Origin: Acidimicrobiia bacterium
Lineage (GTDB): Bacteria > Actinomycetota > Acidimicrobiia > Spongiisociales > UBA5794
Reading direction: 5' to 3'
DNA: 64,000 nt
Assembly: GCA_041393965.1 (NCBI GenBank)
Contig: JAWKJB010000003.1
Location: 192,488 to 256,487, forward strand
Made by a program: the position numbers and the translations under genes. This document shows, one piece after another, positions 14,769 to 60,078 of the stretch. Numbering within the stretch: position 1 is the first letter of the stretch; each line of letters begins with the position of its first letter. A model generated the notes under the pieces. It searched no databases. It had not been told where the DNA came from and worked only from the letters and a program-made list of their open reading frames with translations.

Positions 14769-14855
14769 GCCCGGGTGGCGAAACTGGCAGACGCGGCGGA
14801 CTTAAAATCCGCTACTCGAAAGGGTGTGTGGGTTCAAATCCCGCCCCGGGCACCA
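14769..14855 (+). tRNA. tRNA-Leu (anticodon UAA), 87 nt including encoded CCA
   Basis: hand-folded: acceptor GCCCGGG/CCCGGGC, anticodon loop CTTAAAA, long variable arm, T-loop GGTTCAAATCC, 3' ACCA. Confidence 0.85.
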
Positions 14856-43640: not shown

Positions 43641-43798
43641 ATTCGTTGTATGGGTACCTATTTGCGGCTGGGACGGGCGGCCGGTCTTCCCCCACTCCCA
43701 CTCGCTGTCGCCCGACCAGCCGCAACATGGGCTCCGTGACACCAAGCGGGTGTTCGGAGCGGTTTCGTTGAGGTGCGCCGTGCGGTGGACTAGGATTC

Positions 43799-43816
43799 GC
43801 ACTAGCCGCGTAGTGC
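43799..43816. promoter_or_regulatory. palindrome GCACTA-N6-TAGTGC (extended imperfect arms) 18 bp upstream of the sufB start, followed by RBS GAGGTGA: candidate operator
   Basis: read directly; resembles the ACACT-N5-TGTGA type of SufR operator reported in mycobacteria (from memory, not checked). Confidence 0.3.
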
Positions 43817-43834
43817 AATTCGTGAGGTGATGTC

Positions 43835-45241
43835 ATGACCACGGTGGATATCGATCTCGGTAGTTATCAGCTTGGCTGGTCCGACTCCGAGGACGCCTAT
43901 GTCTACAAGCCCGAGAAGGGACTGACCGAACAGCTCATCCGCGACATGTCGAAGATGAAGGGTGAACCCGAGTGGATGCTCGAGTTCCGCCTCAAGGCGT
44001 ACCAGCGGTTCTTGCGCAAGCCGACCCCGACCTGGGGCGGTGCGGGCTTGCTCGAGACCATCGACTACGACGACATCTACTACTACATCAAGCCGACCGA
44101 GGGCCAAGCCAAGGACTGGGACATGGTTCCCGAGTCGATCAAGGACACCTACGAGAAGCTCGGTATCCCCCAAGCAGAACGCAAGTACCTCGCCGGCGTG
44201 ACCGCACAGTATGAGTCTGAAGTCGTCTACCACCGCAATCGCGAGGATCTCGAGAAACTCGGCGTGCTGTTCTCCGACATGGACACCGCCGTGCGCGAAT
44301 ACCCCGACCTCGTCCGCGAGTACTTCGGCACCGTCATCCCGCCGAACGACAACAAGTTCGCGTCGCTGAACTCGGCTGTCTGGTCCGGCGGTTCGTTCAT
44401 CTATGTGCCCCCCGGCGTGCATGTCGACCAGCCCCTCCAGGCATACTTCCGGATCAACGCCGAATCGATGGGGCAGTTCGAACGCACCCTGATCATCGTG
44501 GACGAAGGCGCCTACTGCCACTATGTCGAGGGCTGTTCGGCGCCAACCTATTCAAATGACTCGCTTCATGCGGCGGTGGTCGAGGTCATCGTCAAGGACG
44601 GTGGCCGCTGTCGTTACACGACCATTCAGAACTGGTCGAACAATGTGCTCAATCTTGTCACCAAGCGGGCGACCGCCTACAAGAACGCCACCATGGAATG
44701 GATCGACGGCAACCTCGGCTCCGGGCTGACCATGAAGTATCCCGCGGTGTGGCTCATGGACGAAGGGGCACACGGGGAGGTGCTGTCGATCGCCTTCGCA
44801 AACACCGGCCAGGTTCTCGATGCCGGGGCCAAGATGGTGCATGCGGCACCACACACCACATCGCTCATCACCTCCAAGTCGATCAGCAAGGGGGGTGGCC
44901 GGTCGGCGTACCGCGGCCTTGTTCGGGTCGAGGAGGGCGCAGAGGACGCCAAGGCCTTTGTCCGGTGCGATGCGTTGCTGCTCGACGAGGACTCCCGATC
45001 AGACACCTACCCGTACATGGAGATCGAGGAGTCCGACATCGACATCGGACACGAGGCGACCGTGTCCAAGGTGGGTGAGGACCAACTGTTCTACCTGATG
45101 AGCCGAGGACTGACCGAGGAACAGGCGACCGCGATGGTGGTGGCGGGGTTCATCGAGCCCATCGTCAAGGAACTCCCGATGGAGTACGCCGTCGAACTGA
45201 ACCGCCTCATCGAACTCCAGATGGAAGGCGCCATCGGCTGA
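43835..45241 (+). CDS. sufB: Fe-S cluster assembly protein SufB
   Basis: 468 aa; conserved SufB N-terminus and C-terminal beta-helix core. Confidence 0.93.
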
Positions 45242-45259
45242 CCGCGGTTGCGCGTACCC

Positions 45260-45279
45260 ACGCGTACCCAGGGTTCGCG
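45260..45279 (+). repeat. intergenic repeat element copy C (ACGCGTACCCAGGGTTCGCG), preceded by a partial direct duplication GCGCGTACCCA
   Basis: read directly, 19 nt after the sufB stop. Confidence 0.8.
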
Positions 45280-45350
45280 GACCACCGAAATGGTCGCTGC
45301 CGACCCACAGAACGGATCGCCGGATCTGCCGCTCGTTACGCTGGGCGGCG

Positions 45351-46010
45351 ATGCGCATCCGGGTAGCTGTCTGCACCGTACGGTACGAAGGTCGCCTCAA
45401 CGCGTCGCTGCCTGAGGCAACGCGGCTCGTGATGGTCAAAGCGGACGGTTGCGTCGCGATCCATGCCGACGGTGCTGCGTACAAGCCGCTCAATTGGATG
45501 AACGCACCCAACACGATCACCGAGGACGACGATTCGTGGACGGTCGTCAATCCCAAGGGGGAGCGACTCACCATTCGATTCCGAGAGGTCCTCTTCGAGG
45601 AGTCGTTCGACATGGGAGACGACCCCGGGCTCGAAAAGGACGGTGTCGAGCTCGAACTCCAGCGGTTGATCGCGCAACGACCCGAGACGCTCGGTGCTGG
45701 CATGGCACTGGTACGCCGTGAATATCCGACGCCGATCGGCCCGGTCGACTTGCTGTGCCGTGCACAGGACGGTTCGACGGTTGCCGTCGAGATCAAGCGT
45801 CGTGGCGAGATCCAAGCCGTCGAGCAGCTCACCCGGTATCTCGAGTTCCTGAACCGCGACACCCGCATCGCCCCGGTCACGGGCATCCTGGCCGCACAGC
45901 TCATCAAGCCGCAGGCTCGGCTCCTTGCTGTGGATCGCGGCATCGAGTGCGTGGAGATCGACTACGACGCCCTGCGCGGTGCCGAATCAGACATCCTGCG
46001 ACTCTTCTGA
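45351..46010 (+). CDS. nucS: endonuclease NucS (EndoMS, mismatch-specific)
   Basis: 219 aa; N-terminus colinear with mycobacterial NucS (…[22 protein letters not shown]…); RecB-like nuclease C-domain. Confidence 0.88.
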
Positions 46011-46049
46011 GGCCCGGCAGCGATCGAACGCGCGTGCGGCGAGGCGACG

Positions 46050-46457
46050 CTACGAGCCGTTGTTCGTCAGGGTCAGCACGGGGACCGCCGCAAGTTCGTC
46101 GAGAAGCGCCGTTCGAGCAGCCTTCCACGGTTCGTGGATCGCGCATTGCGTGGCACCCCCACACGGTCCACCCCTCAGGACGCAGGTCTCCGTGTCCGTT
46201 TTCCCCTCGACGGCCTCGATGAGATCGAGGACACTGATCGTGACCGGATCGGCGGCGAGCTGATAGCCACCGGTCGGCCCACGCTTGGAATCGACCCACC
46301 CCATGTGGACGAGGGGTGACATGATCTGAGGGAGGTAGGCCTGGGTGGTATCGATCGCTTCGGCAAGGTCCGACGACTGCATCGACGACTTCGACCGGCT
46401 CAGGACCCGCAGTGCATCAACGGCAAGCCCTGTCTTTTTCTGGATGGAGAATTTCAC
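46050..46457 (-). CDS. Rrf2 family transcriptional regulator with three-Cys cluster-ligand motif (IscR/NsrR/RsrR-like)
   Basis: GTG start; N-terminal wHTH (…LAEAIDTTQAYLPQIMSPL…); C-x7-C-x5-C (CVLRGGPCGGATQC). Confidence 0.8.
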   Translation of the reverse strand: MKFSIQKKTGLAVDALRVLSRSKSSMQSSDLAEAIDTTQAYLPQIMSPLVHMGWVDSKRGPTGGYQLAADPVTISVLDLIEAVEGKTDTETCVLRGGPCGGATQCAIHEPWKAARTALLDELAAVPVLTLTNNGS

Positions 46458-46462
46458 AGTTC

Positions 46463-46503
46463 CGAAGTCTAGAACATTTATATCTCAGATGGGTCGACTT
46501 CGG
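46463..46503. promoter_or_regulatory. inverted repeat CCGAAGTC-N25-GACTTCGG in the AT-richer 72-bp region immediately upstream of the Rrf2 gene: candidate autoregulatory operator/promoter
   Basis: read directly; the only clearly lower-GC stretch near here. Confidence 0.3.
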
Positions 46504-46529
46504 GCTGAAGTTTGTCCCCAACCGGGACC

Positions 46530-47459
<930 letters not shown>

Positions 47460-47590
47460 CACCCCCGCCCCTTGGCTGTGAAACCGCGTCCCTTGCCGGG
47501 AACTGGAAGATATCACCTTTCGGTCAGTGTGGCAAGAGAGCTGTACGCTTCATTCGCAGTCTCTTGAGGCACCCGTTCGGGGCGATCGGC

Positions 47591-49081
47591 ATGAAGCAAC
47601 GGCCATTCACAGCACTTGTCTCGATGGTCGCGCTCGTCGTCACCGGTTGCACCGGCATGAACGGCTTCGGGCCCAGTGATGCGGTTATCCCACCGGAACG
47701 GGGAGATCCCACGCTGCGGATCGTCGTCCTCGCTGCAGACGACCTCGGTGAGCTTCCATCGACGGTGATCCTCGACGGAGCGGTGCTCCCGGGATCAGGA
47801 GGCACGAGGGAGATCCCATGGCGGCGAGAGCCGATCGAGGTGTCTGTCGCCGCAAGTGGATTCCACCCCCTCGATCATCGTATCGAGCGATATCCGGAGG
47901 GGGGAGTCGTCGAGTTCCGGCTCGAGCCGGTCGTGCTCACCGGCCGTATCACGACCCACGACGGACGGCCGCTCCCCGGAGCCTTGGTGGAACTGGGCGG
48001 CGACTCGGATCGGACCGACAACGAGGGCCGGTACGCGCTCGAGCGAGCAACCGAAGGCACCATGACCCTGTCACGGCCCGCATGGCAGACACGGACCTAC
48101 GACTGGGATGGGACCATTCTCGAGGTGGACATACCGATGGAGCGGTTCGACATCAGGGCGATCCGAGCATCGGCGGCAGACCTCGGCGACTCGGCGGCCT
48201 GGGATCGGATGCTCGATCTGGCGGATCGCACCGCGATCAACGCCGTCGTCATCGACCTCAAGGACGAGAACGGGGCGGTGGTGTACGGTTCGACGCTGGC
48301 CAGGGCAGCCTCGATCGGGGCGATCAACAGCTACTTCGACGCCACGACCGTGGTCGCGGACGCCAAGGAGCACGACCTGTACACGATCGGTCGGATCGGT
48401 GTGTTCCAGGACGACTTCTACGCAACGGCCGAGCCGGACCACGCCGTGACAACCACAACCGGGGAGCTGTGGCGAGCATCGAACGGCCATGGCTGGGTCG
48501 ACCCTTCGGACCCCGCAGGTTACGAATACTCGGTTGCGCTCGCCGAGGAGGCATGCCTTCTCGGATTCGACGAGATCCAGTTCGACTATGTCTCGTGGCC
48601 GATCGGTGATCTCGACAACGCCGTCTTCGACGGCGAGTACAACCAGGAGGTTCGGGTGGCGTCGATCACGGCCTTCCTTGAGCGTGCCTACACCGTACTG
48701 CATCCACGATGCGCCGTGTCGACGACCGTTCTCGGCATCGTGCTCGAGTCAGGAACCGACGAGGGGGTGGGTCAGGAGCCGTCGGCGATGTCCGGCGCAG
48801 TCGATGTCCTATCGCCAACCCTCTACACGACGAACTACGGCGCCGGGTGGAAGGGGATGGATGATCCGAACGATCACGCCGTCGAGGTTGTCACAACGGC
48901 CCTCGACGGTGGTGCCAGCAAGCTCGTCGGTTTTGCCTATCTGCGTCCGTGGCTCCAGACCTGGGCGATCAGCGAAACGGATCAGCGAGCCGTACAGTCA
49001 GCGGTCAGCAACGATGGCATGGGGTGGCTGTTGTGGAGCAACAACGCGCAATACACGATGGGGAACCTGCCGAGCGGTTAG
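47591..49081 (+). CDS. lipoprotein with putative glycoside-hydrolase-like TIM-barrel domain (DUF4015/GHL-type)
   Basis: signal peptide + lipobox (ALVVTGCTG); central region resembles YngK/GHL-type family; function unknown. Confidence 0.5.
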   Translation: MKQRPFTALVSMVALVVTGCTGMNGFGPSDAVIPPERGDPTLRIVVLAADDLGELPSTVILDGAVLPGSGGTREIPWRREPIEVSVAASGFHPLDHRIERYPEGGVVEFRLEPVVLTGRITTHDGRPLPGALVELGGDSDRTDNEGRYALERATEGTMTLSRPAWQTRTYDWDGTILEVDIPMERFDIRAIRASAADLGDSAAWDRMLDLADRTAINAVVIDLKDENGAVVYGSTLARAASIGAINSYFDATTVVADAKEHDLYTIGRIGVFQDDFYATAEPDHAVTTTTGELWRASNGHGWVDPSDPAGYEYSVALAEEACLLGFDEIQFDYVSWPIGDLDNAVFDGEYNQEVRVASITAFLERAYTVLHPRCAVSTTVLGIVLESGTDEGVGQEPSAMSGAVDVLSPTLYTTNYGAGWKGMDDPNDHAVEVVTTALDGGASKLVGFAYLRPWLQTWAISETDQRAVQSAVSNDGMGWLLWSNNAQYTMGNLPSG

Positions 49082-49746
49082 CGAACCTCACCGAGGAGCT
49101 GATCCAATGTCGACGCTGCCCTCGACTGGTGGCATGGCGCGAGGAGGTGGCAAGGACCAAGCGTGCCGCCTTTGAAGGTGAGGAGTATTGGGGCAAGCCG
49201 GTACCGGGGTTCGGGGATCCGATGGCTCGGATCGTCGTCATCGGCCTCGCACCCGCTGCACACGGGGCCAACCGCACCGGGCGCATGTTCACCGGTGATC
49301 GTTCAGGTGATTGGCTGTTTCGCGCGTTGCACACGGCGGGTCTGGCATCGCAGCCACATTCGGTCTCGACAACCGACGGGCTCACGCTGTCAGATGTCTG
49401 GATCACGGCACCGGTGCGGTGTGCGCCGCCCCAGAACAAGCCGACACCGGCAGAGCGGGATGCGTGCTCGTCGTGGTTCGATGCCGAACTCGGGATGCTC
49501 GCCAACGCCCGAGTGTTTGTCGCGCTCGGTCAGTACGGCTATCACGCCCTGTGGGCCCACCTGGCTCGTGCAGGACAGCCCCTCCCGGTCCCACGGCCGA
49601 AGTTCGCCCACGGTCTCGAGACCGCCATCGGCCCCCTCACGATTCTCACCAGTTTCCATGTCTCCCAGCAGAACACCTTCACGGGAAGGCTGACGGTCGA
49701 GATGCTCGATGCCGTGTTCTTGCGAGCCGTACGGCTCGTGTCGTGA
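49033..49746 (+). CDS. udgB: uracil-DNA glycosylase, family 5 (UdgB-type)
   Basis: motif A with Ala in place of the catalytic Asp (GLAPAAHGANRTGRMFTGDRSGDWL), CxRCPRL upstream, motif B HVSQQN; no in-frame ATG, so GTG 49033 (or 49024) is proposed, overlapping the upstream gene by ~49 nt. Confidence 0.7.
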   Translation: MEQQRAIHDGEPAERLANLTEELIQCRRCPRLVAWREEVARTKRAAFEGEEYWGKPVPGFGDPMARIVVIGLAPAAHGANRTGRMFTGDRSGDWLFRALHTAGLASQPHSVSTTDGLTLSDVWITAPVRCAPPQNKPTPAERDACSSWFDAELGMLANARVFVALGQYGYHALWAHLARAGQPLPVPRPKFAHGLETAIGPLTILTSFHVSQQNTFTGRLTVEMLDAVFLRAVRLVS

Positions 49747-49862
49747 GCGACGACATGCACGCCCGGGTCCTCCATGGGGGCGTGATGGGCAATTCACCTA
49801 TCGTCGTATTGGAAACGCCGAGGATCCAGTAACCTCGGAGCATCCCAGCAAGGACATCTGGC

Positions 49863-51062
49863 GTGACAACACCCGCAACCATCGGAATCGATGACGCCGC
49901 GTGGATGGCGACTCGGCGCTCGGACGCGAGCCAACGGCTCGCGACCACAACCATGCCGTCCGAACGCGAGGAGGTCTGGCGCTACCTCGACCTCGACTTC
50001 GATCCCGACTTCGGCTCGGCGCCGCTCGCGCCCGGCGCTTTCCCTTCCGCTGATCAGTTGATGGACGACTGGGTCGGCTCGGTGATCTCGATCGTCGACG
50101 GGTTCGTTACGACCGACGGTGTGCACACCGTTGTATCCGAGCCGGAGGCGACCGACGACGGTGTCGGATCTGATCTGTTCGCAACAGCGTACGATGCGCT
50201 CGCCCCGGGTGCTGCGCTCGTGGATGCCGGTCATCTCGGGGAGCCGGTCTTCGTCGATATCGCAGCGACCGGCCCCGGAACCACCTTTCCGGGAGTGCAT
50301 ATCCACGCGCCCGCCGGATGCGATGCCTCGGTGGTGATCCGCTACCGGTCCGCTTCCGATGACGCTGCCGTGGTCGTGCCGCGCCTCACCGCCAAGGTCG
50401 GCGACAATGCTCGGCTCGCACTCACGATCATCCAGGACTGGAACTACGCGACGAGGGCGATGGGGCGAGCCGTCGTCGATCTCGGGCAGGATGCGGGGCT
50501 GACCCTGTCGGAGGTCGGCCTCGGTGCACTCCTTGGTCGCTTGCACCTCGATGTCAACTTCATCGGCCGCGGATCGTGGGGTCAGATCCACGGTGCCTAC
50601 TTCGGCGAGGAGAACCAGACCCTCGACTACCGGTACTTCATGAACCACATCGGGACCAACACGCGGTCTGACATGTTCCTCAAAGGTGCCGTGGAGGACG
50701 AGGCGCTGTCGGTGTTCACCGGCATGATCAGGATCGAGACGACCGGCCAGAAGACCGAGGCGTTCCAGACGAACCGGAACCTGATCCTTTCACGCGGTGC
50801 GTCGGCACAGTCCGTTCCCAACCTTGAGATCCTCGCGAACGATGTCAAGTGCGGTCACGGATCGAGCGTCGGTCCCCTCGACGAGGACCAGCGCTACTAC
50901 CTGATGAGCCGAGGGCTGATTCCCGAGGTCGCCGACCGGCTGCAGGTCCGGGGCTTCTTCGAGGAGGCCATCGCCAAGATCCCCCATGCGGATCTCGCAC
51001 CGTGGATCCGCGAGCGGATCAACGCCAAGTATGTCCTTGCCCAGGAAGAAGGCAGGGTATGA
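49863..51062 (+). CDS. sufD: Fe-S cluster assembly protein SufD
   Basis: 399 aa; SufD beta-helix C-terminal region; context. Confidence 0.9.
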   Translation: MTTPATIGIDDAAWMATRRSDASQRLATTTMPSEREEVWRYLDLDFDPDFGSAPLAPGAFPSADQLMDDWVGSVISIVDGFVTTDGVHTVVSEPEATDDGVGSDLFATAYDALAPGAALVDAGHLGEPVFVDIAATGPGTTFPGVHIHAPAGCDASVVIRYRSASDDAAVVVPRLTAKVGDNARLALTIIQDWNYATRAMGRAVVDLGQDAGLTLSEVGLGALLGRLHLDVNFIGRGSWGQIHGAYFGEENQTLDYRYFMNHIGTNTRSDMFLKGAVEDEALSVFTGMIRIETTGQKTEAFQTNRNLILSRGASAQSVPNLEILANDVKCGHGSSVGPLDEDQRYYLMSRGLIPEVADRLQVRGFFEEAIAKIPHADLAPWIRERINAKYVLAQEEGRV

Positions 51063-51394
51063 CGATCCATTCCCTCGGCTCCATCGATGCGCTCCCCGAC
51101 GGAAAAGGGACCCGTTTCGATTTCGGTGATGAACGCATCGCGGTGTTCCGTGTCGGCGGGGCGGTGTATGCCATCGGAGATCGCTGTAGCCATGCGGAGG
51201 CATCGCTGTCTGAGGGCGAGCTGTTCGGGCTCGAGGTCGAGTGTCCGAGGCATGGTGCCGAGTTCGACATCACCACCGGTGCCGTCTGCTCGCTGCCAGC
51301 GACCAAGCCGGTTCCGTCGTACCCAACGGAGGTGCGTGACGGTGAGGTCCTCATCACGATCACAACGAAGGAAGAAGATGTCAAGCGCACTTGA
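51059..51394 (+). CDS. Rieske [2Fe-2S] non-heme iron-sulfur protein
   Basis: ATG overlapping the sufD stop (ATGA); CxH…CxxH (DRCSHAE…CPRHGAEF); upstream ORF extension rejected. Confidence 0.8.
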   Translation: MTIHSLGSIDALPDGKGTRFDFGDERIAVFRVGGAVYAIGDRCSHAEASLSEGELFGLEVECPRHGAEFDITTGAVCSLPATKPVPSYPTEVRDGEVLITITTKEEDVKRT

Positions 51395-52106
51395 GGTCAG
51401 CAATCTGACCGCGTCGATCGGAGATCTCGCGATTCTCAAGGGGGTCGATCTGGAGGTGCCGTTCGGAGAGGTCCACGCGGTGATGGGACCAAACGGTTCC
51501 GGGAAGTCGACCCTCTGCCATGTCCTGATGGGCAAGGACGACTACACGGCGTCCGGCACGGCTCGGGTGGACGGAGTGGACATCATGGGCATGACCGTCG
51601 ATGAACGGGCCCGCGTGGGGCTGTTCGAAGCCTTCCAGTATCCGACCGAGATTCCGGGCGTCACGCTCGATGATCTCGTCGGTGCGATGGCGGCGTCGAA
51701 CCCCGACGACGACGGATTCTGGGCGCGCGCCGATGCGACCGCACAGACCCTGTCGATGGATCGATTCCGGAAGCGGTCGGTGAATGTCGGGCTGTCCGGT
51801 GGCGAGAAGAAGCGTTCGGAGATGTACCTGCTCGGCGTTGCGAACCCCAAGGTGGCGATCCTCGACGAGATCGACTCGGGTCTCGACATCGACGCGGTGC
51901 GCGAGGTCGCAGCGCTGGTCGAGTCCATGCGAAGCGACGAGCGCGCTGTGCTCATCATCACGCACTACAGCAGGATCCTGCGCTACCTATCGGTCGACCG
52001 TGTCCATGTCATGGTGAGCGGCAAGATCGTCAGAAGTGGTGGTCCCGAGGTCGCAGAGGAACTCGAGTCCGGCGGCTACGCCGAATTGCAGGCAGCAGCT
52101 CGGTAG
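51378..52106 (+). CDS. sufC: Fe-S cluster assembly ATPase SufC (copy 1)
   Basis: 242 aa fits ATG at 51378 (the track lists 51381); Walker A GPNGSGKST, signature LSGGEKKR, Walker B ILDEIDSGLD; strong match to mycobacterial SufC C-terminus (ITHYSRILRYL…GGPEVAEELE). Confidence 0.9.
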   Translation: MSSALEVSNLTASIGDLAILKGVDLEVPFGEVHAVMGPNGSGKSTLCHVLMGKDDYTASGTARVDGVDIMGMTVDERARVGLFEAFQYPTEIPGVTLDDLVGAMAASNPDDDGFWARADATAQTLSMDRFRKRSVNVGLSGGEKKRSEMYLLGVANPKVAILDEIDSGLDIDAVREVAALVESMRSDERAVLIITHYSRILRYLSVDRVHVMVSGKIVRSGGPEVAEELESGGYAELQAAAR

Positions 52107-52177
52107 CGCACAGGCAGCCGGCTGCGGTGTGATCCGAGTGAGGTCCGGTGCCTTGCGTTCATAGTACGGTTCGTGCC

Positions 52178-52939
52178 ATGGACGGCTCGATGTCACACCT
52201 CACCAGGCTCGTCGCCCAAGCCGACGCCATTCTCATCCTGAGCGGCGCAGGGATCTCCACGGCAAGTGGCATCCCCGATTTTCGCGGACCAAACGGGATC
52301 TGGAAGGCCGAACGCCCCGTCCCGTTCGACGAGTTCCTCACCAACGAGCAACGCCGGATCGCGTCCTGGGAACAGAAGGTACGAGCCGCCGAGGTCCTCC
52401 GGGACGCACGACCGAATGCTGTTCATGTGGCGTGTGTCGAGCTCGAGGCCTCTGGCAAGCTCGAGATGGTTGCCACACAGAACATCGACGGTCTGCACGC
52501 CGAGGCGGGCACCTCGCCCGGACGGCTCGTCGAGTTGCATGGCACCGGCCGGGAGGCCGGGTGCCTGTCGTGCGGTGAACGCACACCGATCGAGCCGCAT
52601 CTCGAGCGGTTTGTGGCGACGGGAACAGCGCCGACCTGTGCGGCGTGTGGTGGTCTCCTCAAGTCGGCGACCATCAGTTTCGGGCAGGCCCTCGATCCGC
52701 TTGTGCTCGATCGGGCTCATCGGGCGGCGGAGCGCTGCGATCTGGTGGTGGCACTCGGGACCTCGCTCAGCGTGTATCCCGCCGCGGACCTTCCTCTGAC
52801 GGCGGTTCGTCGAGGTATTCCGTACGCAATTGTCAATCGGGGCGGTACCGACCACGACACCTGGACCGGAGTAACGGTGCGCATCGATGGTGATGTCAAC
52901 GAGGTGTTTCCACAAGTGGTCGCGGCCGCCATCGGCTGA
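52178..52939 (+). CDS. cobB: NAD-dependent protein deacylase (Sir2/CobB sirtuin)
   Basis: start MDGSMSH (52178); GAGIST…GIPDFRG, QNIDGLH, zinc-binding Cys pairs (CLSCG…CAAC). Confidence 0.85.
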   Translation: MDGSMSHLTRLVAQADAILILSGAGISTASGIPDFRGPNGIWKAERPVPFDEFLTNEQRRIASWEQKVRAAEVLRDARPNAVHVACVELEASGKLEMVATQNIDGLHAEAGTSPGRLVELHGTGREAGCLSCGERTPIEPHLERFVATGTAPTCAACGGLLKSATISFGQALDPLVLDRAHRAAERCDLVVALGTSLSVYPAADLPLTAVRRGIPYAIVNRGGTDHDTWTGVTVRIDGDVNEVFPQVVAAAIG

Positions 52940-52995
52940 AGTGACGCCGCGCGGGGTCACTATCGTTTGGACGAGTCGACGGTGAGGAGGAGACG

Positions 52996-54384
52996 ATGCG
53001 GGTCGAGAAGGACTCGATGGGCGAGGTGTCCGTGCCGGACGGTGCGTACTACGGTGCCTCGACCCAACGGGCCGTTGACAACTTCCCGATCTCGAACCTC
53101 CGATTCGGACGCTCGTTCATCTGGGCCCTCGGCCTCCTCAAGGCCTCAGCCGCCGAAACGAACCTCACGCTCGGTCTGATCGACGAGCGGCAGGCAGACG
53201 CGATCATCGCGGCGGCCGAGGAAGTCATGAACGGGGACCTCGACGACCAGTTCGTCCTCGACATCTTTCAGACGGGATCCGGCACATCGACGAACATGAA
53301 CGCGAACGAGGTGATCGCAAACCGAGCGACGGAGATCCTCGGCGGGGAGCTCGGATCAAAGTTGATCCACCCGAACGACCATGTCAACGCGAGCCAGTCC
53401 TCGAACGACACCATTCCCACCGCTATCCATGTGGCTGCCGTGGCCGGCATCGAGCAGCGGCTCCTTCCCGCACTCGATGCCCTCGCCGAATCGCTCGAGG
53501 CCAAGTCCGACGAGTTCGACGATGTGCTCAAGTCGGGCCGAACCCATCTGATGGATGCAACACCGGTCCGTCTCGGCCAGGAGTTTGGCGGCTACGCCGC
53601 CCAGGTGCGCAAGGGCATTGCCCGTCTTCGGGCGATCCTTCCGGACCTGCACGAGCTCGCGCTCGGCGGAACGGCGGTCGGGACGGGTATCAATGCCCCG
53701 CAAGGTTTTGCGTCGGGGACGATCGGGCGCATGGCGGAACGATCCGGATATCCCTTCGTCGAGGCAGCGGATCATTTCGAGGCGCAGGCGTCCAAAGATG
53801 CCGTCGTCAGCGCATCTGGGGCACTCAAGACGGTTGCCGTGTCCTTGTTCAAGATCTCGAACGACCTCCGATGGCTCTCATCGGGCCCACGAACGGGTAT
53901 CGCCGAGATCACCCTTCCCTCGCTCCAGCCCGGATCCTCGATCATGCCGGGGAAGGTCAACCCGGTGATTTCGGAGATGATGATGCAGGTTGCGAGCCAT
54001 GTGATCGGAAACGACACCGCCATCACATGGGGCGGTGCCAACGGCAACTTCGAGCTCAATGTGATGATGCCGATGATGGCTCACAACCTGCTTGAGTCCA
54101 TCGACCTCCTCGCGTCGGCGGCGGCGGTCATGCGGGACAAGATGGTGGTCGGGATCGAGGCAAACTCGGAGCGAGCCAAGTGGCTCCTCGAGCAGAATGT
54201 GATCATCATTACGGCGCTCGTTCCACTGATCGGATACGACACCTCTGCCGAGGTGGCGAAGAAGGCGTTTGCCGAGGGCCGAAGCGTCCGTGAGGTCGCC
54301 CTCGAGATGGGAGTGCTTCCCGAAGAGGAGCTCAACGCTGCGCTTGATCTGCGCCCGATGACCGAGGGTGGTATCACGGGTTGA
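52996..54384 (+). CDS. fumC: class II fumarate hydratase (aspartase/fumarase superfamily; fumC more likely than aspA)
   Basis: 462 aa; GSSIMPGKVNP signature; QSSNDTIPTAIHVAA and N-terminal region closer to FumC than AspA. Confidence 0.8.
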   Translation: MRVEKDSMGEVSVPDGAYYGASTQRAVDNFPISNLRFGRSFIWALGLLKASAAETNLTLGLIDERQADAIIAAAEEVMNGDLDDQFVLDIFQTGSGTSTNMNANEVIANRATEILGGELGSKLIHPNDHVNASQSSNDTIPTAIHVAAVAGIEQRLLPALDALAESLEAKSDEFDDVLKSGRTHLMDATPVRLGQEFGGYAAQVRKGIARLRAILPDLHELALGGTAVGTGINAPQGFASGTIGRMAERSGYPFVEAADHFEAQASKDAVVSASGALKTVAVSLFKISNDLRWLSSGPRTGIAEITLPSLQPGSSIMPGKVNPVISEMMMQVASHVIGNDTAITWGGANGNFELNVMMPMMAHNLLESIDLLASAAAVMRDKMVVGIEANSERAKWLLEQNVIIITALVPLIGYDTSAEVAKKAFAEGRSVREVALEMGVLPEEELNAALDLRPMTEGGITG

Positions 54385-54431
54385 GGTTCAGTCCGCCGCC
54401 GGCATCGGGCATGGGACCCGCGCGGGATCCG

Positions 54432-55952
54432 ATGATGGAGGGTTTCCTGTTCACCGATCAGTACCAGTTGACAATGGCCCAGCTGTACTGGAAGTACGGA
54501 CTTGCCGACACCACCGCCCAGTTCGACTACTTCTTCAGGCGGTACCCGAACTACGGCGAGCACCAGGCCGGGTACGCCGTCACCGCGGGCATGGGATGGC
54601 TCCTCGACTGGATCGAGACAACCCGCATCACCGCCGAGGATCTCGAGGCCCTTCGCGCACAAACCGACAGGACAGGATCGCGCCGTTTCGACGACGGTTT
54701 CCTGGCGTGGCTCGCCGAGGACGGGAGCTTCGACCGGCTCCGGATCAGGTCGATCGCCGAGGGTCGAATCGTCCATGCCGCCGAGCCGATCGCCGTCGTG
54801 GAAGGCCCCCTCGCGGTCGCTCAGATCCTTGAGACCTCACTGCTGAACCATCTCAACTACCAGACCCTGATCGCAACCAAGGCCTCCCGAATCGCCGAAC
54901 AGGCCCGAGGTGCCGTAGTGCTTGAGTTCGGGATGCGTCGGGGTCCTGATCAGGGGACGAACGCTGGCACGCGCGCGGCGCTGATCGGTGGGGCGCATGC
55001 CAGCTCCAATGTGGGCGCATCGGCGGTGTTCGGGACCGACCCAATGGGTACCCATGCTCATTCGATGGTGCAGCTGTTCATGGCGCTCGGTGAGGGCGAG
55101 ATCGGGGCTTTTCGGGCGTATGCCGCAACCTATCCGGACGAATGTCTGCTGCTCGTCGACACCATTGACACCTTGCGCAGCGGACTCCCGAACGCCATCG
55201 AGGTGTTCGGGGAGCTTCGAGCTCGGGGCCACGAGCCGGTAGGGATCCGTCTCGATTCGGGAGATCTTGCGCACCTCGCGGTCCGTTCCGCTGCCATGCT
55301 CGACGATGCCGGATTCCCCGATGTCGCGATCGTGCTGTCCTCGGACCTCGACGAACTCGCGATGTGGCAGATCCGGGAACAGATCATCCAGGAGGCACCC
55401 GCATATGGCCTCGAGCCCGACGCCGTTGTCGCAAGGCTCACCTACGGAGTCGGGACCCGGCTCGTCACCTCCCACGGCGACTCGGCGCTCGGCGGTGTGT
55501 ACAAGCTCGTCGGCATCGAACGCGACGGTGCACTTGCACCGGCAATCAAGGTCTCTGATTCGCCTGCGAAGATGCCGATTCCGGGCGACAAGCGCCTGTG
55601 GCGCGTCTATGACCAGCGCGGCCTCGCAACGGCCGATGTGGTTGCTCTCACCGGTGAATCTGTGGCACGGAACGAACCGATCACGGTGCACCATCCGCAC
55701 CAGCCGGGCGTCAGCCGTCGCCTCGACGCCGGTCAGGTCCACGATGTGGAGGAACTCCATGTCGTCGTGTTCGACACGGGACAGCGCCGGGACCGGGATG
55801 GGAGCATCGATGCCCTCCGTGCCCGCCGCGACGCCGACCTTGACCGGCTCGATGTCGGTGTCAGACGCCTCGTCAATCCCCACCGATACCATGTTTCGGT
55901 GACCGATGGCGTGCGCGACCTTCGCGACCGGCTCCTTGCCGGGTACCACTAA
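54432..55952 (+). CDS. pncB: nicotinate phosphoribosyltransferase
   Basis: NAPRTase family N-terminus (…LFTDQYQLTMAQ…) and central phosphoribosyltransferase barrel (…HAHSMVQ…); start 54432/54435 (ORF opens 54381). Confidence 0.85.
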   Translation: MMEGFLFTDQYQLTMAQLYWKYGLADTTAQFDYFFRRYPNYGEHQAGYAVTAGMGWLLDWIETTRITAEDLEALRAQTDRTGSRRFDDGFLAWLAEDGSFDRLRIRSIAEGRIVHAAEPIAVVEGPLAVAQILETSLLNHLNYQTLIATKASRIAEQARGAVVLEFGMRRGPDQGTNAGTRAALIGGAHASSNVGASAVFGTDPMGTHAHSMVQLFMALGEGEIGAFRAYAATYPDECLLLVDTIDTLRSGLPNAIEVFGELRARGHEPVGIRLDSGDLAHLAVRSAAMLDDAGFPDVAIVLSSDLDELAMWQIREQIIQEAPAYGLEPDAVVARLTYGVGTRLVTSHGDSALGGVYKLVGIERDGALAPAIKVSDSPAKMPIPGDKRLWRVYDQRGLATADVVALTGESVARNEPITVHHPHQPGVSRRLDAGQVHDVEELHVVVFDTGQRRDRDGSIDALRARRDADLDRLDVGVRRLVNPHRYHVSVTDGVRDLRDRLLAGYH

Positions 55953-56533
55953 CGCACGGTGACGCCTGCGTCGACCATGGTGGCGATGGCGCGGGCACCG
56001 TCGCCGGGTTCGAGATCAACCGCGGCGATACCGTCAGCAACAACGATGGTCTCATAGCCGAGCCTGACGGCGTCGAGGCAGGTAGCAAGCACGCAGTAAT
56101 CGGTGGCAAGCCCGACGACGACCACCGTGTCGATGCCGTGAGCGGTCAGCATGCCACCAAGCTCGGTCGGGATCTCATCACCCGAGGTGGGATCACGCAT
56201 GGTGAACCCGGAGTATCCATCCTCCCCGTTCGTGCCCTTTCGAACGACCGGTCCGGTGGCCGTGCAGTCGGCGTGGAACTCCGCGCCCCAGGAATCTGCG
56301 ACACAGTGCACCGGCCAGATCCCGCCATCCTTGGCGAAATGGGGGGTGGATTCGGGGTGCCAGTCCTGGGTTCTGACGACAAGGGATCCCGCTGCCGCTG
56401 CCGCGTCGGCCTGTTCGTTGATCGATGTCATCACCCGCGGTGCGCCGGAGACGAACAGCGACCCATCCGGATGGGCAAAGTCGTTCTGGACATCGACGAC
56501 GATGAGCGCCGTGGTCTCTCCATAGGTGATCAT
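55949..56533 (-). CDS. pncA: nicotinamidase/pyrazinamidase (isochorismatase family)
   Basis: 194 aa; ALIVVDVQNDF, catalytic Cys in VVVGLATDYCV, metal-binding His/Asp region (…DWHPE…). Confidence 0.85.
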   Translation of the reverse strand: MITYGETTALIVVDVQNDFAHPDGSLFVSGAPRVMTSINEQADAAAAAGSLVVRTQDWHPESTPHFAKDGGIWPVHCVADSWGAEFHADCTATGPVVRKGTNGEDGYSGFTMRDPTSGDEIPTELGGMLTAHGIDTVVVVGLATDYCVLATCLDAVRLGYETIVVADGIAAVDLEPGDGARAIATMVDAGVTVR

Positions 56534-56543
56534 GGATCGGCGG

Positions 56544-57002
56544 TCATGTCGTCACGCCGGCCTGTTCGAGTGCGTTGGCAAGCGTGGTCCAGGCGAGGTC
56601 GGCGCACTTGATCCGCACAGGGAACTTGCGGACTCCCTGGAGCGCTTCGAGGTCGCCGAGGACCGAACCGGGCCGTTCCTCGTCGACGGGATTCTCGCCC
56701 TCCTCGATCGACATCATGGTTCGGAACTTGTGGGCGAGATCGGTGATCTCGCCGGTCGTCTTCCCGACGATCGACTCCATCATCATGGAGCCCGACGCCT
56801 GCGAGATCGAACACCCCTGTCCCTGCATGGCGGCGTCGGTGACGACATCATCCTCGATGACGATGTCGAGGTAGAACTCGTCGCCACACGACGGATTGGT
56901 TCCCTCGGCGTGGATGTGGTCGGCCTCGATACGGCCCCTTCGCCTCGGGTTGCGGTAGTGATCGAGGATCACACCACGGTACAGCTCGTCGAGTTCTGCC
57001 AT
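56544..57002 (-). CDS. sufU: SUF system NifU-family Fe-S cluster assembly scaffold SufU
   Basis: conserved Cys residues (…NPSCGDE…; …GQGCSISQAS…; …KCADLAW…). Confidence 0.85.
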   Translation of the reverse strand: MAELDELYRGVILDHYRNPRRRGRIEADHIHAEGTNPSCGDEFYLDIVIEDDVVTDAAMQGQGCSISQASGSMMMESIVGKTTGEITDLAHKFRTMMSIEEGENPVDEERPGSVLGDLEALQGVRKFPVRIKCADLAWTTLANALEQAGVTT

Positions 57003-57050
57003 TCAGGTCCTGGTCCGCTGGGTTCGAGGATACCGGTGGGGGGTGAGCAC

Positions 57051-58277
57051 TCAGGCGAGCCCGAAGATCCTGCGCGCCTTGTGGAGGGACTCGACGAGCA
57101 CATCGACCTCCTCGAGCGTGTTGTAGAGGTAGAACGAGGCTCTTGCGGTGGCGGGTATGGCAAGGTACTTCATGAGCGGCCGCGCGCAGTGATGACCCGC
57201 CCGCACCGCAACACCGTCCTGGTCGAGGATGGTTGCGATGTCATGCGGATGGATGTCTCCGAGCTCGAAGCTCACGGCGCCGCCGCGCCTCGACACATCC
57301 TTCGGGCCGTAGATCGTCAAGTCGGGCACCTCGGACAGCCGCTCGAGTGCGTACTGGGTCAGGGCGCGTTCGTGCCCAACGATGGTCTCCATGCCGATGG
57401 CTTCGAGGTAATCCACGGCGGCACCGAAGCCGATCGCCTCGGCGATCGGTGGTGTCCCCGCTTCGAATTTGTGGGGGACCGGCGCCCAGGTCGCCGAGTG
57501 CCGCTCGACGGTGTTGATCATTTCCCCGCCACCTTCGGTCGGCTCCATCTCCTCAAGGAGTTCGGCGCGCCCCCAGAGGGCCCCGATCCCGGTCGGGCCG
57601 AGCATCTTGTGTGAGGAGAAGGCAAGGAAGTCGACTTGAAGCTCCGTGACATCCACCGCGGTGTGCGGCACGAGCTGGGCACCGTCGAGGACCGAGATGG
57701 CCCCAACCGAGCGCGCCGCGGCCGACAGGGTCTCGATCGGGCCGAGTGCACCCGTGACATTGGACATGCCGGAAAAGGCGATGACCCGGGTTCGCTCGTC
57801 GATCACGGTGTCGAGCTGGCTCGTGTCGACGCCGTAGTCGTCGTCGAGCTCGAGATAGGCGAGTTCGGCGCCCGTGTAGCGCGCGACGAGCTGCCACGGC
57901 ACGATGTTGGCGTGGTGTTCCATGATCGTCACCACGATGCGGTCCCCGTCGCGAAGGTGGTTCAGACCCCACCCGTAGGCGATGTAGTTGAGTGCGGTCG
58001 TTGTTCCCCTTGTGAAGACCAGGTGCGCCGGGGACGCGCCGATGAAGGAGGCAACCTTCGACCGGGCTGTCTCATACTGCTCGGTCGCCTCTGCCGCGAG
58101 CGTGTGGGCGCCACGATGCACATTGGCATTCGAGGTCTCGTAGTAGGTGTCCATGGCGTCGAGCACCGACCGTGGCTTCTGCGTGGTGGCTGCCGAGTCG
58201 AGGTAGACGAGCGGCTTTCCGTTGACCTCGCGTCCGAGAATCGGGAAGTCCGACCGGAGCGCCCGCAGGTCGCTCAC
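57051..58277 (-). CDS. sufS: cysteine desulfurase SufS (class V aminotransferase, group II)
   Basis: 408 aa; PLP-Lys region (SSHKMLGPTGIG), active-site Cys loop (…RAGHHCARPL…). Confidence 0.9.
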   Translation of the reverse strand: MSDLRALRSDFPILGREVNGKPLVYLDSAATTQKPRSVLDAMDTYYETSNANVHRGAHTLAAEATEQYETARSKVASFIGASPAHLVFTRGTTTALNYIAYGWGLNHLRDGDRIVVTIMEHHANIVPWQLVARYTGAELAYLELDDDYGVDTSQLDTVIDERTRVIAFSGMSNVTGALGPIETLSAAARSVGAISVLDGAQLVPHTAVDVTELQVDFLAFSSHKMLGPTGIGALWGRAELLEEMEPTEGGGEMINTVERHSATWAPVPHKFEAGTPPIAEAIGFGAAVDYLEAIGMETIVGHERALTQYALERLSEVPDLTIYGPKDVSRRGGAVSFELGDIHPHDIATILDQDGVAVRAGHHCARPLMKYLAIPATARASFYLYNTLEEVDVLVESLHKARRIFGLA

Positions 58278-59026
58278 CCGACGCCGACCTCCGGCCGGAA
58301 CGCCTCGTACCCTGCTTCTTCGATGGCGTCCGCGAGCTCGGCAGTGCCGGATTCGACGATCGTACCGTCCACGAAGACATGGACGAAGTCGGGCGTGATG
58401 TAGTCGAGCATCCGCTGGTAGTGGGTAATGATGAGGAAACCCCGTTGCTCGTTCTGGAGCCTCGTGACGCCTTCAGCCACGATCTTGAGCGCATCGATGT
58501 CGAGTCCGCTGTCGGTCTCGTCCAACACCGCGAATTCGGGTTCGAGGACCGCCATCTGGAGGATCTCGTTGCGTTTGCGTTCGCCGCCGGAGAAACCCTC
58601 ATTGAGGTAGCGGTCGGCGAACGATGGATCCATGTCGAGGTCCCGCATGGCGTCCATCACCTTGAGGCGCAGCTCGAGGACCGTGAGATCGGTCCCCGTC
58701 TTGTTCGACAGTGCGGTGCGGAGGAAGTTCACGACGCTGACGCCGGGGATCTCCTCGGGGTACTGGAAGCCGAGGAACATTCCGACCTTCCCGCGCTTGT
58801 CAGGAGACCACTCGGTGATGTCCTCGCCCTTGAAGCGAACGGAACCAGAGACCTCGTAGGCGGGATGGCCGAGGAGGATGTTGGCAAGGGTCGACTTGCC
58901 GGATCCGTTGGGACCCATGATGGCATGCGTCTCGCCCGCGTTGATCGTCACATCGACCCCTTTGAGAATCGGGGTGCCGTCGACGGAGGCGTGCAGGTTG
59001 CTGACCTCAAGGAGGGGCGTTGGCAT
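58274..59026 (-). CDS. sufC: Fe-S cluster assembly ATPase SufC (copy 2)
   Basis: start MPTPLLEV… (59026; the ORF extends to 59080); Walker A GPNGSGKST, signature FSGGERKR, Walker B VLDETDSGLD; only ~45% identical to copy 1. Confidence 0.88.
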   Translation of the reverse strand: MPTPLLEVSNLHASVDGTPILKGVDVTINAGETHAIMGPNGSGKSTLANILLGHPAYEVSGSVRFKGEDITEWSPDKRGKVGMFLGFQYPEEIPGVSVVNFLRTALSNKTGTDLTVLELRLKVMDAMRDLDMDPSFADRYLNEGFSGGERKRNEILQMAVLEPEFAVLDETDSGLDIDALKIVAEGVTRLQNEQRGFLIITHYQRMLDYITPDFVHVFVDGTIVESGTAELADAIEEAGYEAFRPEVGVG

Positions 59027-59134
59027 CGTCGTCATGGGGCGAGGATACCCCGTCAGATGGCCCAAGGAAGCGGTTTCCAATATGCTGGTAGGTGAAACAC
59101 GGTTGGGTGGGCAGGAGGTCCGCCGTGAGCGTCG

Positions 59135-60067
59135 TCAGGTGCCGATGGCCTCGAAGACGAGGCGCATCCGATCGAGGTCGATGGCGTCGAGTGGCCGGTA
59201 CTCCTGGATGTAGTACCGACCGATGCCCCACGACATCAGACGGTCGATGACGGCTCTTGCCATCTCGGGAGTCCCGTGTGGCACGCCGCGAGCATCGAGC
59301 AGGTCGCGGTAATCGGTGGCCGAGATGCCACGCCGTGCTCCCCGCGTCTCGAGCGCCTCGGCGTGTTCGCGTTCCGACTCGTGGATGAGGACCGGTCCCG
59401 CGAACGACACGAGGATCGCGTCCGGGTCACGGCTTGCGGCCACAGCTGCCGTGCGCATCGTCTCGACCCGCTCGTCGAGGTTGTGGCGTTCCGTGACGAA
59501 CAGGTTGTATTCGTCGGCGTATCGCCCCGCGAGCTGCGGTGTGCGGCGTCGCCCGGCGCCGCCGATGACGATGGCGAACCCGTCCGAGACGCGTGGGTGC
59601 ACCCTCGTGATGTCGAGCGAGTGATGGGTTCCCGGGACGGAACCGCCTCCGGATGTGATCGCGGCGATCACTGCCAGCGCCTCTTCGAGCCGATCGAACC
59701 GCTCTTCGATCGGGGGGAGGTCGACGCCGAATGCCTCATGTTCGGAACGCATCCAGCCTGCCCCGACGCCGAGGGTGAACCGACCGCCGGACATCTCGTC
59801 GATGGTCGCCGCCGATTTGGCGAGGACGGCGGGGTGGCGGAAGGTGATGGGTGAGACAAGCGACACGAGTCGGATCTTCGAGGTTTCGCGTGCGAGGCCC
59901 CCGAATGAGACAAGGGCATCGGTCGCATCGTTCGAGTCCTCCCCGTCGAGGTAGTGATCCGACCGGGCGAAGGCCGCAAAGCCCGTCGCTTCGGCCCACC
60001 GTGCGAGCTCGATGAGGCGCTCGTACGACCCACCGCATTGCGGCTCGACGAAGAGGCCGAGTTCCAT
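59135..60067 (-). CDS. LLM class flavin/F420-dependent oxidoreductase
   Basis: start MELGLFVEP (60067); LLM motifs (…LGVGAGW…). Confidence 0.75.
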   Translation of the reverse strand: MELGLFVEPQCGGSYERLIELARWAEATGFAAFARSDHYLDGEDSNDATDALVSFGGLARETSKIRLVSLVSPITFRHPAVLAKSAATIDEMSGGRFTLGVGAGWMRSEHEAFGVDLPPIEERFDRLEEALAVIAAITSGGGSVPGTHHSLDITRVHPRVSDGFAIVIGGAGRRRTPQLAGRYADEYNLFVTERHNLDERVETMRTAAVAASRDPDAILVSFAGPVLIHESEREHAEALETRGARRGISATDYRDLLDARGVPHGTPEMARAVIDRLMSWGIGRYYIQEYRPLDAIDLDRMRLVFEAIGT

Positions 60068-60078
60068 CGCGTCCGTCC

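Follow-up and report, generated by a model that had tools for sequence, protein, structure and literature searches.

The genes that serve the assembly of iron–sulfur clusters (Fe-S clusters) by the SUF system in an Acidimicrobiia bacterium (GenBank assembly GCA_041393965.1, contig JAWKJB010000003.1, forward-strand positions 192,488 to 256,487; this whole 64,000-nucleotide stretch, with a G+C content of 64%, is referred to as the window) raise the question of whether a seemingly scrambled locus is a peculiarity of one genome or an organized system. Profile searches with Pfam and NCBIfam, in which scores in bits were read against curated cut-offs, found every gene named in the initial annotation at or near the position given for it (Table 1). 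The gene calls confirm that sufB is split from sufD, a Rieske ferredoxin gene and sufC1 by an insert encoding NucS, an Rrf2 regulator, a sigma factor, a lipoprotein and a uracil-DNA glycosylase (UDG), that a second, divergent sufC2 lies on the opposite strand in a sufC2-sufS-sufU-pncA unit, and that cobB, fumC and pncB, all on the plus strand, occupy the space between the two halves. The three-unit layout is ordinary for the lineage and not a quirk of one genome. A palindromic operator that recurs across the class precedes each of the three units and appears to define them as one regulon, which would also include two distinct SufC ATPases.

About 30 Acidimicrobiia-type loci (numbered L001 onwards) from a scan of species-representative genomes were compared. 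The window order recurs in independent ENA, JGI and NCBI assemblies at 51–84% SufC1 identity and on nine more metagenome contigs. In L001–L004 (74–77% SufC1 identity) it occurs without Rrf2 and pncAB, and in the closest relatives, L087 and L088 (83–84%), Rrf2, pncB and pncA are also present. In the deeper members L028, L029, L048, L049 and L056, sufB-sufD-Rieske-sufC1 is contiguous, with a convergent sufU-sufS-sufC2 located 2–5 kb downstream. L198 is intermediate, its sufB and sufD being separated by the DUF4015 gene alone. Because the deep members have a contiguous sufB-sufD-Rieske-sufC1 facing a convergent sufC2-sufS-sufU, the two-sufC design is older than the nucS-to-UDG insertion, and because it extends to deep Acidimicrobiia branches (L028, L048, L049), the two-sufC layout is ancestral for the lineage. 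Both kinds of sufC, one next to the Rieske gene and one next to sufS, occur together on 21 contigs in all.

The window arrangement differs from the sufR-sufB-sufD-sufC-sufS-sufU-sufT operons of mycobacteria, as would be expected of a recent genome-specific rearrangement or an assembly artefact. However, the recurrence of the order in assemblies from three sources and on the additional metagenome contigs refutes this explanation, to which practically no credence is given; misassembly is ruled out because synteny is kept in many independent assemblies. The description of the locus as atypical is therefore withdrawn. The initial annotation had also considered that close relatives might share exactly this layout while a conventional SufR regulates it from elsewhere. 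The shared layout was found, in L087 and L088 down to Rrf2 and pncAB, and regulation by a SufR-like protein encoded elsewhere is likely.

A 26-bp palindrome, ATTnnCACTA-N6-TAGTGnnAAT, is confined to three places in the 64 kb, in front of sufB, sufD and sufC2. The sufD and sufC2 upstream regions have in common TTCACCTA-N6-TATTGGAAAC, and the sufB upstream region contains the related ATTCGCACTA-N6-TAGTGCAAT. The three sites (Table 1) were scored with a position weight matrix (PWM) derived from 22 sites, all of them in other genomes, with the window left out. The fourth-best PWM score in the window is 1.9 bits, and the maximum over 200 simulated 64-kb sequences is 16.4 bits. Across the class the operator consensus is aTTTcCACTA-N6-TAGTGgAAAt, which carries 26 bits of information; the information is highest in the ATT/AAT flanks, which stand about 20 nt from each other. 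Sites orthologous to operator 1 precede sufB in L001, L003, L011, L028, L029, L056 and L088. Equivalents of operator 2 precede sufD in L001, L003, L011, L013, L014, L016 and L018, and are absent from relatives' loci in which sufD directly follows sufB; equivalents of operator 3 precede sufC2 in L011, L014, L018, L028, L031, L048 and L049. No high-scoring site in the relatives lies anywhere but before sufB, before a sufD that is separated from sufB, or before sufC2.

An exact-consensus scan of metagenome contigs returned 120 stretches, 69 of which have a G+C content of at least 55%. In 62 of the 69 high-GC stretches the site lies no more than 200 nt upstream of a relevant gene: sufC2-type (41), SfuA/PhnS-like binding-protein (11), DUF59-Mrp/ApbC (4), EfeU (2), sufB (2), ErpA/IscA-type carrier (1) or SufR-like (1). 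The predicted regulon thus extends beyond suf, and since the operator precedes suf, carrier and iron-uptake genes, the three suf units would belong to a single Fe-S and iron regulon. Sites before non-suf genes are found at L091:4542, L093:8782, L102:353, L111:1649, L123:77, L129:4046, L139:2121 and L151:14; the genes comprise DUF59-Mrp/ApbC, in divergent orientation to an ErpA/IscA-type carrier gene; EfeU; and a gene for a substrate-binding SfuA/PhnS-like lipoprotein of uncertain substrate.

The operator of many relatives lies directly against a TANNNT hexamer, 6–7 nt before the start codon of sufC2 or sufD, a placement that suggests repression at leaderless or short-leader promoters. Operator 1 of the window overlaps a −10-like TAGGAT, and its end lies 13 nt ahead of the start codon of sufB. 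At the high-GC locus L189 (400–4250), a sufC of the C2 type followed by a sufD-like gene, sufS and sufU stands behind a suf operator, so the operator is used in lineages without the split two-sufC layout. A 21-bit match lies ~110 nt upstream of sufC in Peribacillus (L054:3992–4019), with none in the other Firmicutes loci, and may be due to chance.

Which protein reads the operator? The initial annotation had reported no local SufR, and tblastn with the SufR proteins of mycobacteria and of Ilumatobacter coccineus, taken here to be a cultured member of the Acidimicrobiia, together with Pfam searches of the other large open reading frames (ORFs), likewise found no SufR homologue in the 64 kb. No ArsR-type candidate occurs among the other window ORFs, and the same queries brought up no SufR homologue within ±10 kb of suf at any of the Acidimicrobiia loci compared. 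The SufR of M. tuberculosis is reported to use an AT-hook to read A/T tracts that flank a low-specificity palindrome (bioRxiv 10.64898/2025.12.26.696629). The dataset of the same preprint lists a SufR-family protein for I. coccineus, whose sequence displays a GRP hook, Cys residues and a CxxE motif. Mycobacterial sufR promoters have a flank spacing similar to that of the Acidimicrobiia operator and score ≤2 bits with the Acidimicrobiia PWM; the operator therefore appears to resemble SufR sites in architecture, not in sequence. A 246-aa SufR-like protein is encoded at L112:1251–1991 on the minus strand. It shows 27% identity to mycobacterial SufR over most of its length and has a GRP wing motif and C-terminal Cys residues, and NCBIfam returned at most a weak ArsR helix-turn-helix match for it. 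Its gene adjoins a miaA-like gene and lies 24 nt from a perfect consensus operator (2015–2040). The balance tips slightly towards a SufR-like protein, encoded in trans, as the regulator.

The initial annotation had instead pointed to the Rrf2 protein as the Fe-S-sensing candidate; an Rrf2/IscR-type regulator would then bind the operator, and the three-cysteine Rrf2 of the window would control all three suf units. Its ligand residues (C-VLRGGP-C-GGATQ-C-AI-H, three Cys and one His) suit such a role, and the protein passes the superfamily model TIGR00738 (85 versus 73.3 bits). Among specific models, the SUF-regulator and IscR types match it best, but it scores below their equivalog cut-offs, with 54.9 versus 207.6 bits for IscR and 63.4 versus 110.7 bits for the SUF regulator. 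In the window, as in L087 and L088, the gene falls within the suf region; other Rrf2 genes occur 0.4–0.7 kb upstream of sufC2, on the opposite strand, in L104 (2147–2545), L164 (2023–2736), L182 (4782–5279) and L204 (275–409), and the breadth of the regulon, with carriers and iron uptake, is IscR-like. In contrast, the Rrf2 gene is missing from most loci that keep the operators, among them relatives with all three (L001–L003, L011, L028 and others), its presence at the suf locus being confined to the closest sublineage. Neither of the copies beside sufC2 in L164 and L182 has the Cys cluster; both are CymR-like (the L182 protein scores best as such), a different subfamily from the window Rrf2. 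Upstream of the window Rrf2 gene lies a different conserved sequence, TGTTCTAGACT, and no suf-type site above 2 bits. Because the operator is class-wide and has the architecture of SufR sites, and because a SufR-family protein exists in I. coccineus, Rrf2 is unlikely to be the conserved SUF regulator.

The two SufC proteins are 46% identical in alignment. It had been considered that one of them might belong to another ABC family; this is contradicted by the profile cut-offs, the solved structures and the motifs alike, and both are assigned as true SufC. Each scores above the SufC equivalog cut-off (TIGR01978, 212.8 bits). Against solved SufC structures (2d2e, 2zu0, 2d3w), SufC1 scores 195–222 bits and SufC2 248–291 bits (221.7 and 290.7 bits, respectively, for T. 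thermophilus 2d2e), with the next ABC proteins at ~90 bits for either paralogue. The Walker A (GPNGSGKST), Q-loop (FQYP) and H-loop (ITHY) sequences are identical in both. The ABC signature is LSGGEKKR in SufC1 and FSGGERKR in SufC2, and Walker B with the catalytic Glu is ILDEIDSGLD and VLDETDSGLD, respectively.

In neighbour-joining trees of 60 and 85 SufC sequences (100 bootstraps), SufC2 is monophyletic in 92 of 100 replicates and clusters with mycobacterial, Firmicutes, proteobacterial and nanohaloarchaeal SufC. The SufC1 group is split from all canonical SufC, the mycobacterial proteins included, with 78–83% support, and SufC1 and SufC2 were never recovered as sisters in either tree. SufC2 is thus placed by sequence as the canonical type and SufC1 as a divergent clade with, to date, none but Acidimicrobiia-like members. 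An outgroup root, obtained with a distant ABC ATPase, fell inside the SufC1 group and is regarded as an artefact of long-branch attraction. Among 1.84 billion cluster representatives, a single full-length 50%-identity cluster lies near SufC1 (P0361, 278 bits), beyond which only generic SufC was found, at ≤222 bits. The named clusters neighbouring SufC1 are Actinomycetota and include strain IMCC26207, presumably a freshwater member of the Acidimicrobiia. The extra divergence of SufC1 from canonical SufC is concentrated in the helical subdomain (approximately residues 91–165 in SufC2 numbering), as seen in a regional identity profile; column identity there is 0.13–0.26 within SufC1 sequences versus 0.52–0.77 within SufC2. 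At conservation thresholds of 80%/70%, no site is conserved in SufC1 yet different in SufC2 and canonical SufC. The proposal of an old inversion or insertion followed by sufC duplication fits the synteny but is not borne out by the SufC tree, in which the two paralogues were never sisters. SufC1 may have arisen by duplication followed by acceleration or by acquisition.

Taken together, the data are best described as a standard SUF system of the Acidimicrobiia, with three units under a common operator, an Fe-S-sensing repressor acting in trans and a two-SufC scaffold, a reading to which a probability of about 0.6 is assigned. The three transcription units would be sufB, sufD-Rieske-sufC1 and sufC2-sufS-sufU(-pncA), the second probably running on into cobB-fumC-pncB; short or overlapping junctions suggest the units sufD-Rieske-sufC1-cobB-fumC-pncB and sufC2-sufS-sufU-pncA. 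Promoter and terminator consensus scans of 43.4–60.4 kb gave fewer matches than shuffled sequence and do not define the operons. The 26-bp operator before each unit would make them one regulon. The repressor, most likely of the SufR family (COG2345), would occupy the operators when Fe-S supply is adequate, and falling supply would release it from all three units together. The SufB-SufD scaffold would be powered by two non-identical SufC protomers, the canonical SufC2 sitting on the conserved SufB and the fast-evolving SufC1 on the fast-evolving SufD, to which sufC1 is translationally linked through the Rieske gene. The regulator's identity, the mode of repression, the operon boundaries and the SufC heterodimer are deductions from sequence comparison.

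A SufB-C2-C1-D complex is proposed as the most economical model for a region with sufB and sufD in one copy each and two sufC genes, both conserved, under a common operator and with intact catalytic motifs. Indirect support comes from the contrast in helical-subdomain conservation between the paralogues and from a mirror-tree analysis, which gave partial correlations of distances, controlling for SufS, of 0.45 for SufC1-SufD and 0.13 for SufC2-SufD, a weak signal; its SufB part is unreliable, as some SufB extracts were intein-split or cross-matched. Alternatively, the paralogues may be functionally separate, with one serving both SufB-SufD positions and the other being a spare, a condition-specific isoform, or a partner of SufS-SufU or another protein. 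The loci of Ca. Actinomarina and OCS155, which read sufB-sufD-Rieske-sufC1-fumC with no sufC2 within 10 kb, are compatible with such a separation. L189, where a SufC2-type gene precedes the sufD-like gene, indicates that SufC2-type proteins can be the sole scaffold ATPase in related lineages, and the complete ATPase motifs imply that each paralogue could form homodimeric pairs. Nevertheless, both genes are retained together in the 21 contigs, which span deep branches, their common operator argues for joint rather than alternative use, and none of the loci compared has a further sufB or sufD in the neighbourhood of sufC2. Functional separation is therefore considered possible but not favoured. 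The related suggestion of a partner other than SufBD for the second ATPase finds no support, SufC2 being the canonical-type paralogue. The strictest form of the preferred model, an obligate heteromeric SufB-SufC2-SufC1-SufD complex of long-specialised paralogues under a SufR-type operator whose reach includes Fe-S carriers and iron uptake, is held only tentatively.

Several points weigh against the three-unit, two-SufC model as a whole. No regulator gene was identified within the 64 kb available from this genome. The shape of the operator also fits an Rrf2/IscR-type dimer, and a palindrome of 26 bp with AT-rich ends presumably resembles IscR type-1 sites. A regulon with iron-uptake and carrier genes is, we assume, broader than the SufR regulons described for mycobacteria. 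An Rrf2/IscR-type regulator of the three units is nonetheless improbable. The operator position relative to the putative −10 element differs among the three window units, so that repression by occlusion is plausible for sufB only. The heterodimer is deduced from rate patterns and the weak mirror-tree signal, SufC1 alone might suffice, as in the Ca. Actinomarina loci described above, and a second sufB or sufD may possibly lie elsewhere in the genome, beyond the 64 kb.

Table 1 Features of the SUF region in the window, with their supporting evidence.
Feature	Position	Strand	Evidence
Operator 1, upstream of sufB, GATTCGCACTAGCCGCGTAGTGCAATTC	43794–43821		PWM 29.1 bits
sufB, 468 aa	43835–45241	+	TIGR01980 712.9 bits (cut-off 346.4); Pfam SUFBD_core
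nucS, endonuclease	45351–46010	+	NF002876 334.5 bits (cut-off 252); Pfam NucS_N and NucS_C
Rrf2-family regulator	46050–46457	-	Pfam Rrf2 101 bits; C-x6-C-x5-C-x2-H motif
Group 1/2-type sigma-70 factor	46530–47516	-	NF005920 (SigB) 339 bits, under cut-off 464
DUF4015 putative glycosyl-hydrolase lipoprotein	47564–49081	+	Pfam DUF4015 229.7 bits; N-terminal ALVVTGC, lipobox-like
Family-5-type uracil-DNA glycosylase (UdgB)	48949–49746	+	Pfam UDG; solved relative 2d3y, E 4e-68; GLAPA motif
Operator 2, UDG-sufD intergenic region, CAATTCACCTATCGTCGTATTGGAAACG	49790–49817		PWM 20.3 bits
sufD, 399 aa	49863–51062	+	Pfam SUFBD_core 210.8 bits; TIGR01981 211.7 bits, slightly below cut-off 222; expected position
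Rieske [2Fe-2S] ferredoxin, 111 aa	51059–51394	+	CSH...CPRH motifs; Rieske-type ferredoxin models all below cut-offs
sufC1, divergent SufC paralogue, 242 aa	51378–52106	+	TIGR01978 262.6 bits (cut-off 212.8)
cobB, Sir2-family NAD-dependent deacylase	52148–52939	+	Pfam SIR2 136 bits; NF040867 212.6 bits, below cut-off
fumC, class II fumarase, no Fe-S cluster needed	52996–54384	+	Pfam Lyase_1 and FumaraseC_C
pncB, nicotinate phosphoribosyltransferase	54381–55952	+	NF006695 543 bits (cut-off 469)
pncA, nicotinamidase, last gene of minus-strand unit	55949–56533	-	Pfam Isochorismatase; NF008623 137 bits, below cut-off
sufU	56544–57002	-	TIGR01994 158.8 bits (cut-off 92.5)
sufS	57051–58277	-	TIGR01979 591.9 bits (cut-off 475.1)
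sufC2, canonical-type SufC, 250 aa	58274–59026	-	TIGR01978 324 bits; NCBI product 250 aa (P0121)
Operator 3, upstream of sufC2, TGTTTCACCTACCAGCATATTGGAAACC (sufC2 strand)	59072–59099		PWM 21.7 bits

The gene order of the region begins with gltB, followed by sufB. The nucS gene is a member of the block inserted between sufB and sufD. Orthologues of the sigma-70 factor have 309 aa, and its true start is therefore probably internal to the annotated ORF; the plus-strand ORF across the same span has no family match in Pfam or NCBIfam. The UDG matches 2d3y with 232.6 bits, other UDG structures scoring ≤34 bits, and its sequence contains GLAPAAHG. The T. thermophilus enzyme 2d3y is taken to be a family 5 UDG, in which GLAPA replaces the family-4 GEAPG. 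The start of the UDG gene probably lies downstream of 48949. The Rieske gene overlaps sufD by ATGA and appears to be translationally coupled to both sufD and sufC1, and the Pfam Rieske domain was found in orthologues of its product. A 339-aa ORF at 51087–52106 was considered as a Rieske-SufC fusion and ruled out, the Rieske gene being in another frame. On the minus strand, sufS and sufU are separated by 48 nt, and sufC2 has an alternative ATG at 59035. Rfam and tRNA scans of the window found no riboswitch near suf; the sole RNA family in the 64 kb is one tRNA-Leu (anticodon TAA) at 14769–14855 on the plus strand.

The fumC gene comes after sufC1 class-wide (L001–L021, Ca. Actinomarina included). 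The sufC1-fumC gap is only 27 nt in the streamlined Ca. Actinomarina loci (L017–L021, about 10714). FumC may be co-expressed with SUF as a back-up for an Fe-S-dependent fumarase. The products of cobB (a sirtuin, which releases nicotinamide), pncA and pncB (52148–56533) make up a complete nicotinamide salvage loop, its genes standing at the ends of the two suf units, which converge; pncAB is limited to the closest relatives (L005, L087, L088). A 941-aa protein with GNAT, CoA-binding, succinyl-CoA-ligase-like and ATP-grasp domains is encoded at 17173–19998 (plus strand). This domain set is presumably the architecture of a Pat-type protein lysine acetyltransferase, which makes a natural counterpart to CobB, the deacylase encoded beside sufC1.

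In L048 and L049 the suf operator lies ~1.36 kb upstream of the start of SufB similarity (L048:5651–7016, L049:5662–7014), and the intervening sequence translates to the LAGLIDADG-like GYVDADGYVRDH. The sufB genes of both loci probably carry an intein, as mycobacterial SufB is presumed to do. Directly upstream of sufC2, on the minus strand (59135–61306), are genes for an F420-type luciferase-like oxidoreductase, a metallo-beta-lactamase-fold protein and a thioredoxin-like/AhpC-TSA protein; the block is conserved in L001, L003 and L087, a DsbB gene comes next after it in relatives, and it forms a thiol-redox neighbourhood. Two adjacent half-transporter genes (ABC_membrane plus ABC_tran; 587 and 591 aa) with a 4-nt overlap lie at 33900–37435 on the plus strand, probably encode a heterodimeric ABC exporter, and explain a weak SufC-like tblastn match at 36740.

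In SufBC2D complexes the two SufC protomers sit on different partners, and their separate roles are difficult to study when both are encoded by a single gene. A class that has two distinct SufC but a single SufB and SufD amounts to a natural experiment on SufC asymmetry in which the two sites could be mutated independently. If the heteromeric scaffold is real, it would mark the first case in nature of a SUF system whose ATPase subunits are asymmetric and would allow the role of each SufC site to be asked directly. The operator turns an apparently scrambled locus into a defined regulon and provides a concrete DNA target for finding the Fe-S sensor of the Acidimicrobiia, which are abundant and poorly cultured bacteria of marine, freshwater and soil habitats. 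Should only the synteny hold, the locus has still been shown to be ordinary for its lineage. New here are the operator shared across the class and the SUF variant with two distinct SufC; the parts themselves are those of the known actinobacterial SUF system. No paper on SufC paralogues in Acidimicrobiia was found in the open-access literature.

Compared with the actinobacterial SUF operon of Mycobacterium and Streptomyces (sufR-sufB-sufD-(Rieske)-sufC-sufS-sufU-sufT, with the [4Fe-4S] repressor SufR), the window encodes the same protein set, SufB, SufD, SufC, SufS and SufU. The order within the fragments, sufD-Rieske-sufC and sufC-sufS-sufU, is kept, and the Rieske gene lies between sufD and sufC as in Streptomyces-type operons according to the initial annotation. 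In contrast, the window genes are broken into three units on two strands, there are two sufC genes differing at more than half of their aligned residues, and neither sufR nor sufT, both present in mycobacterial operons, was found in or near the locus. The Acidimicrobiia operator shares with the M. tuberculosis SufR sites a palindromic core with A/T flanks, seen likewise in mycobacterial promoters, whereas its core is CACTA-N6-TAGTG rather than the ACACT-N5-TGTGA or CAAC-N6-GTTG of actinobacterial SufR-type sites, and it also stands before Mrp/ApbC, A-type carrier, EfeU and binding-protein genes. The IscR/Rrf2 regulons of Proteobacteria are alike in that dispersed scaffold, A-type carrier and Mrp/ApbC-type genes are under a palindrome of ~25 bp; they differ in that the Acidimicrobiia operator has no Rrf2 gene as a conserved companion throughout the class and the local three-cysteine Rrf2 falls below the IscR and SUF-regulator cut-offs.

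More than one sufC per genome is reported for Methanosarcina acetivorans (SufC1B1/SufC2B2) and Paenibacillus polymyxa (sufC2D2B2) (PMC10500019, PMC8038749). Duplication there extends to the whole scaffold module, each sufC having its own sufB or sufD, whereas the window region duplicates sufC alone, beside sufB and sufD in one copy each. One SufB and one SufD also characterize the solved SufBC2D complexes and components of E. coli and T. thermophilus (5awf, 2zu0, 2d2e). In those complexes one gene product fills both SufC positions; in the window region, two conserved paralogues could fill them.

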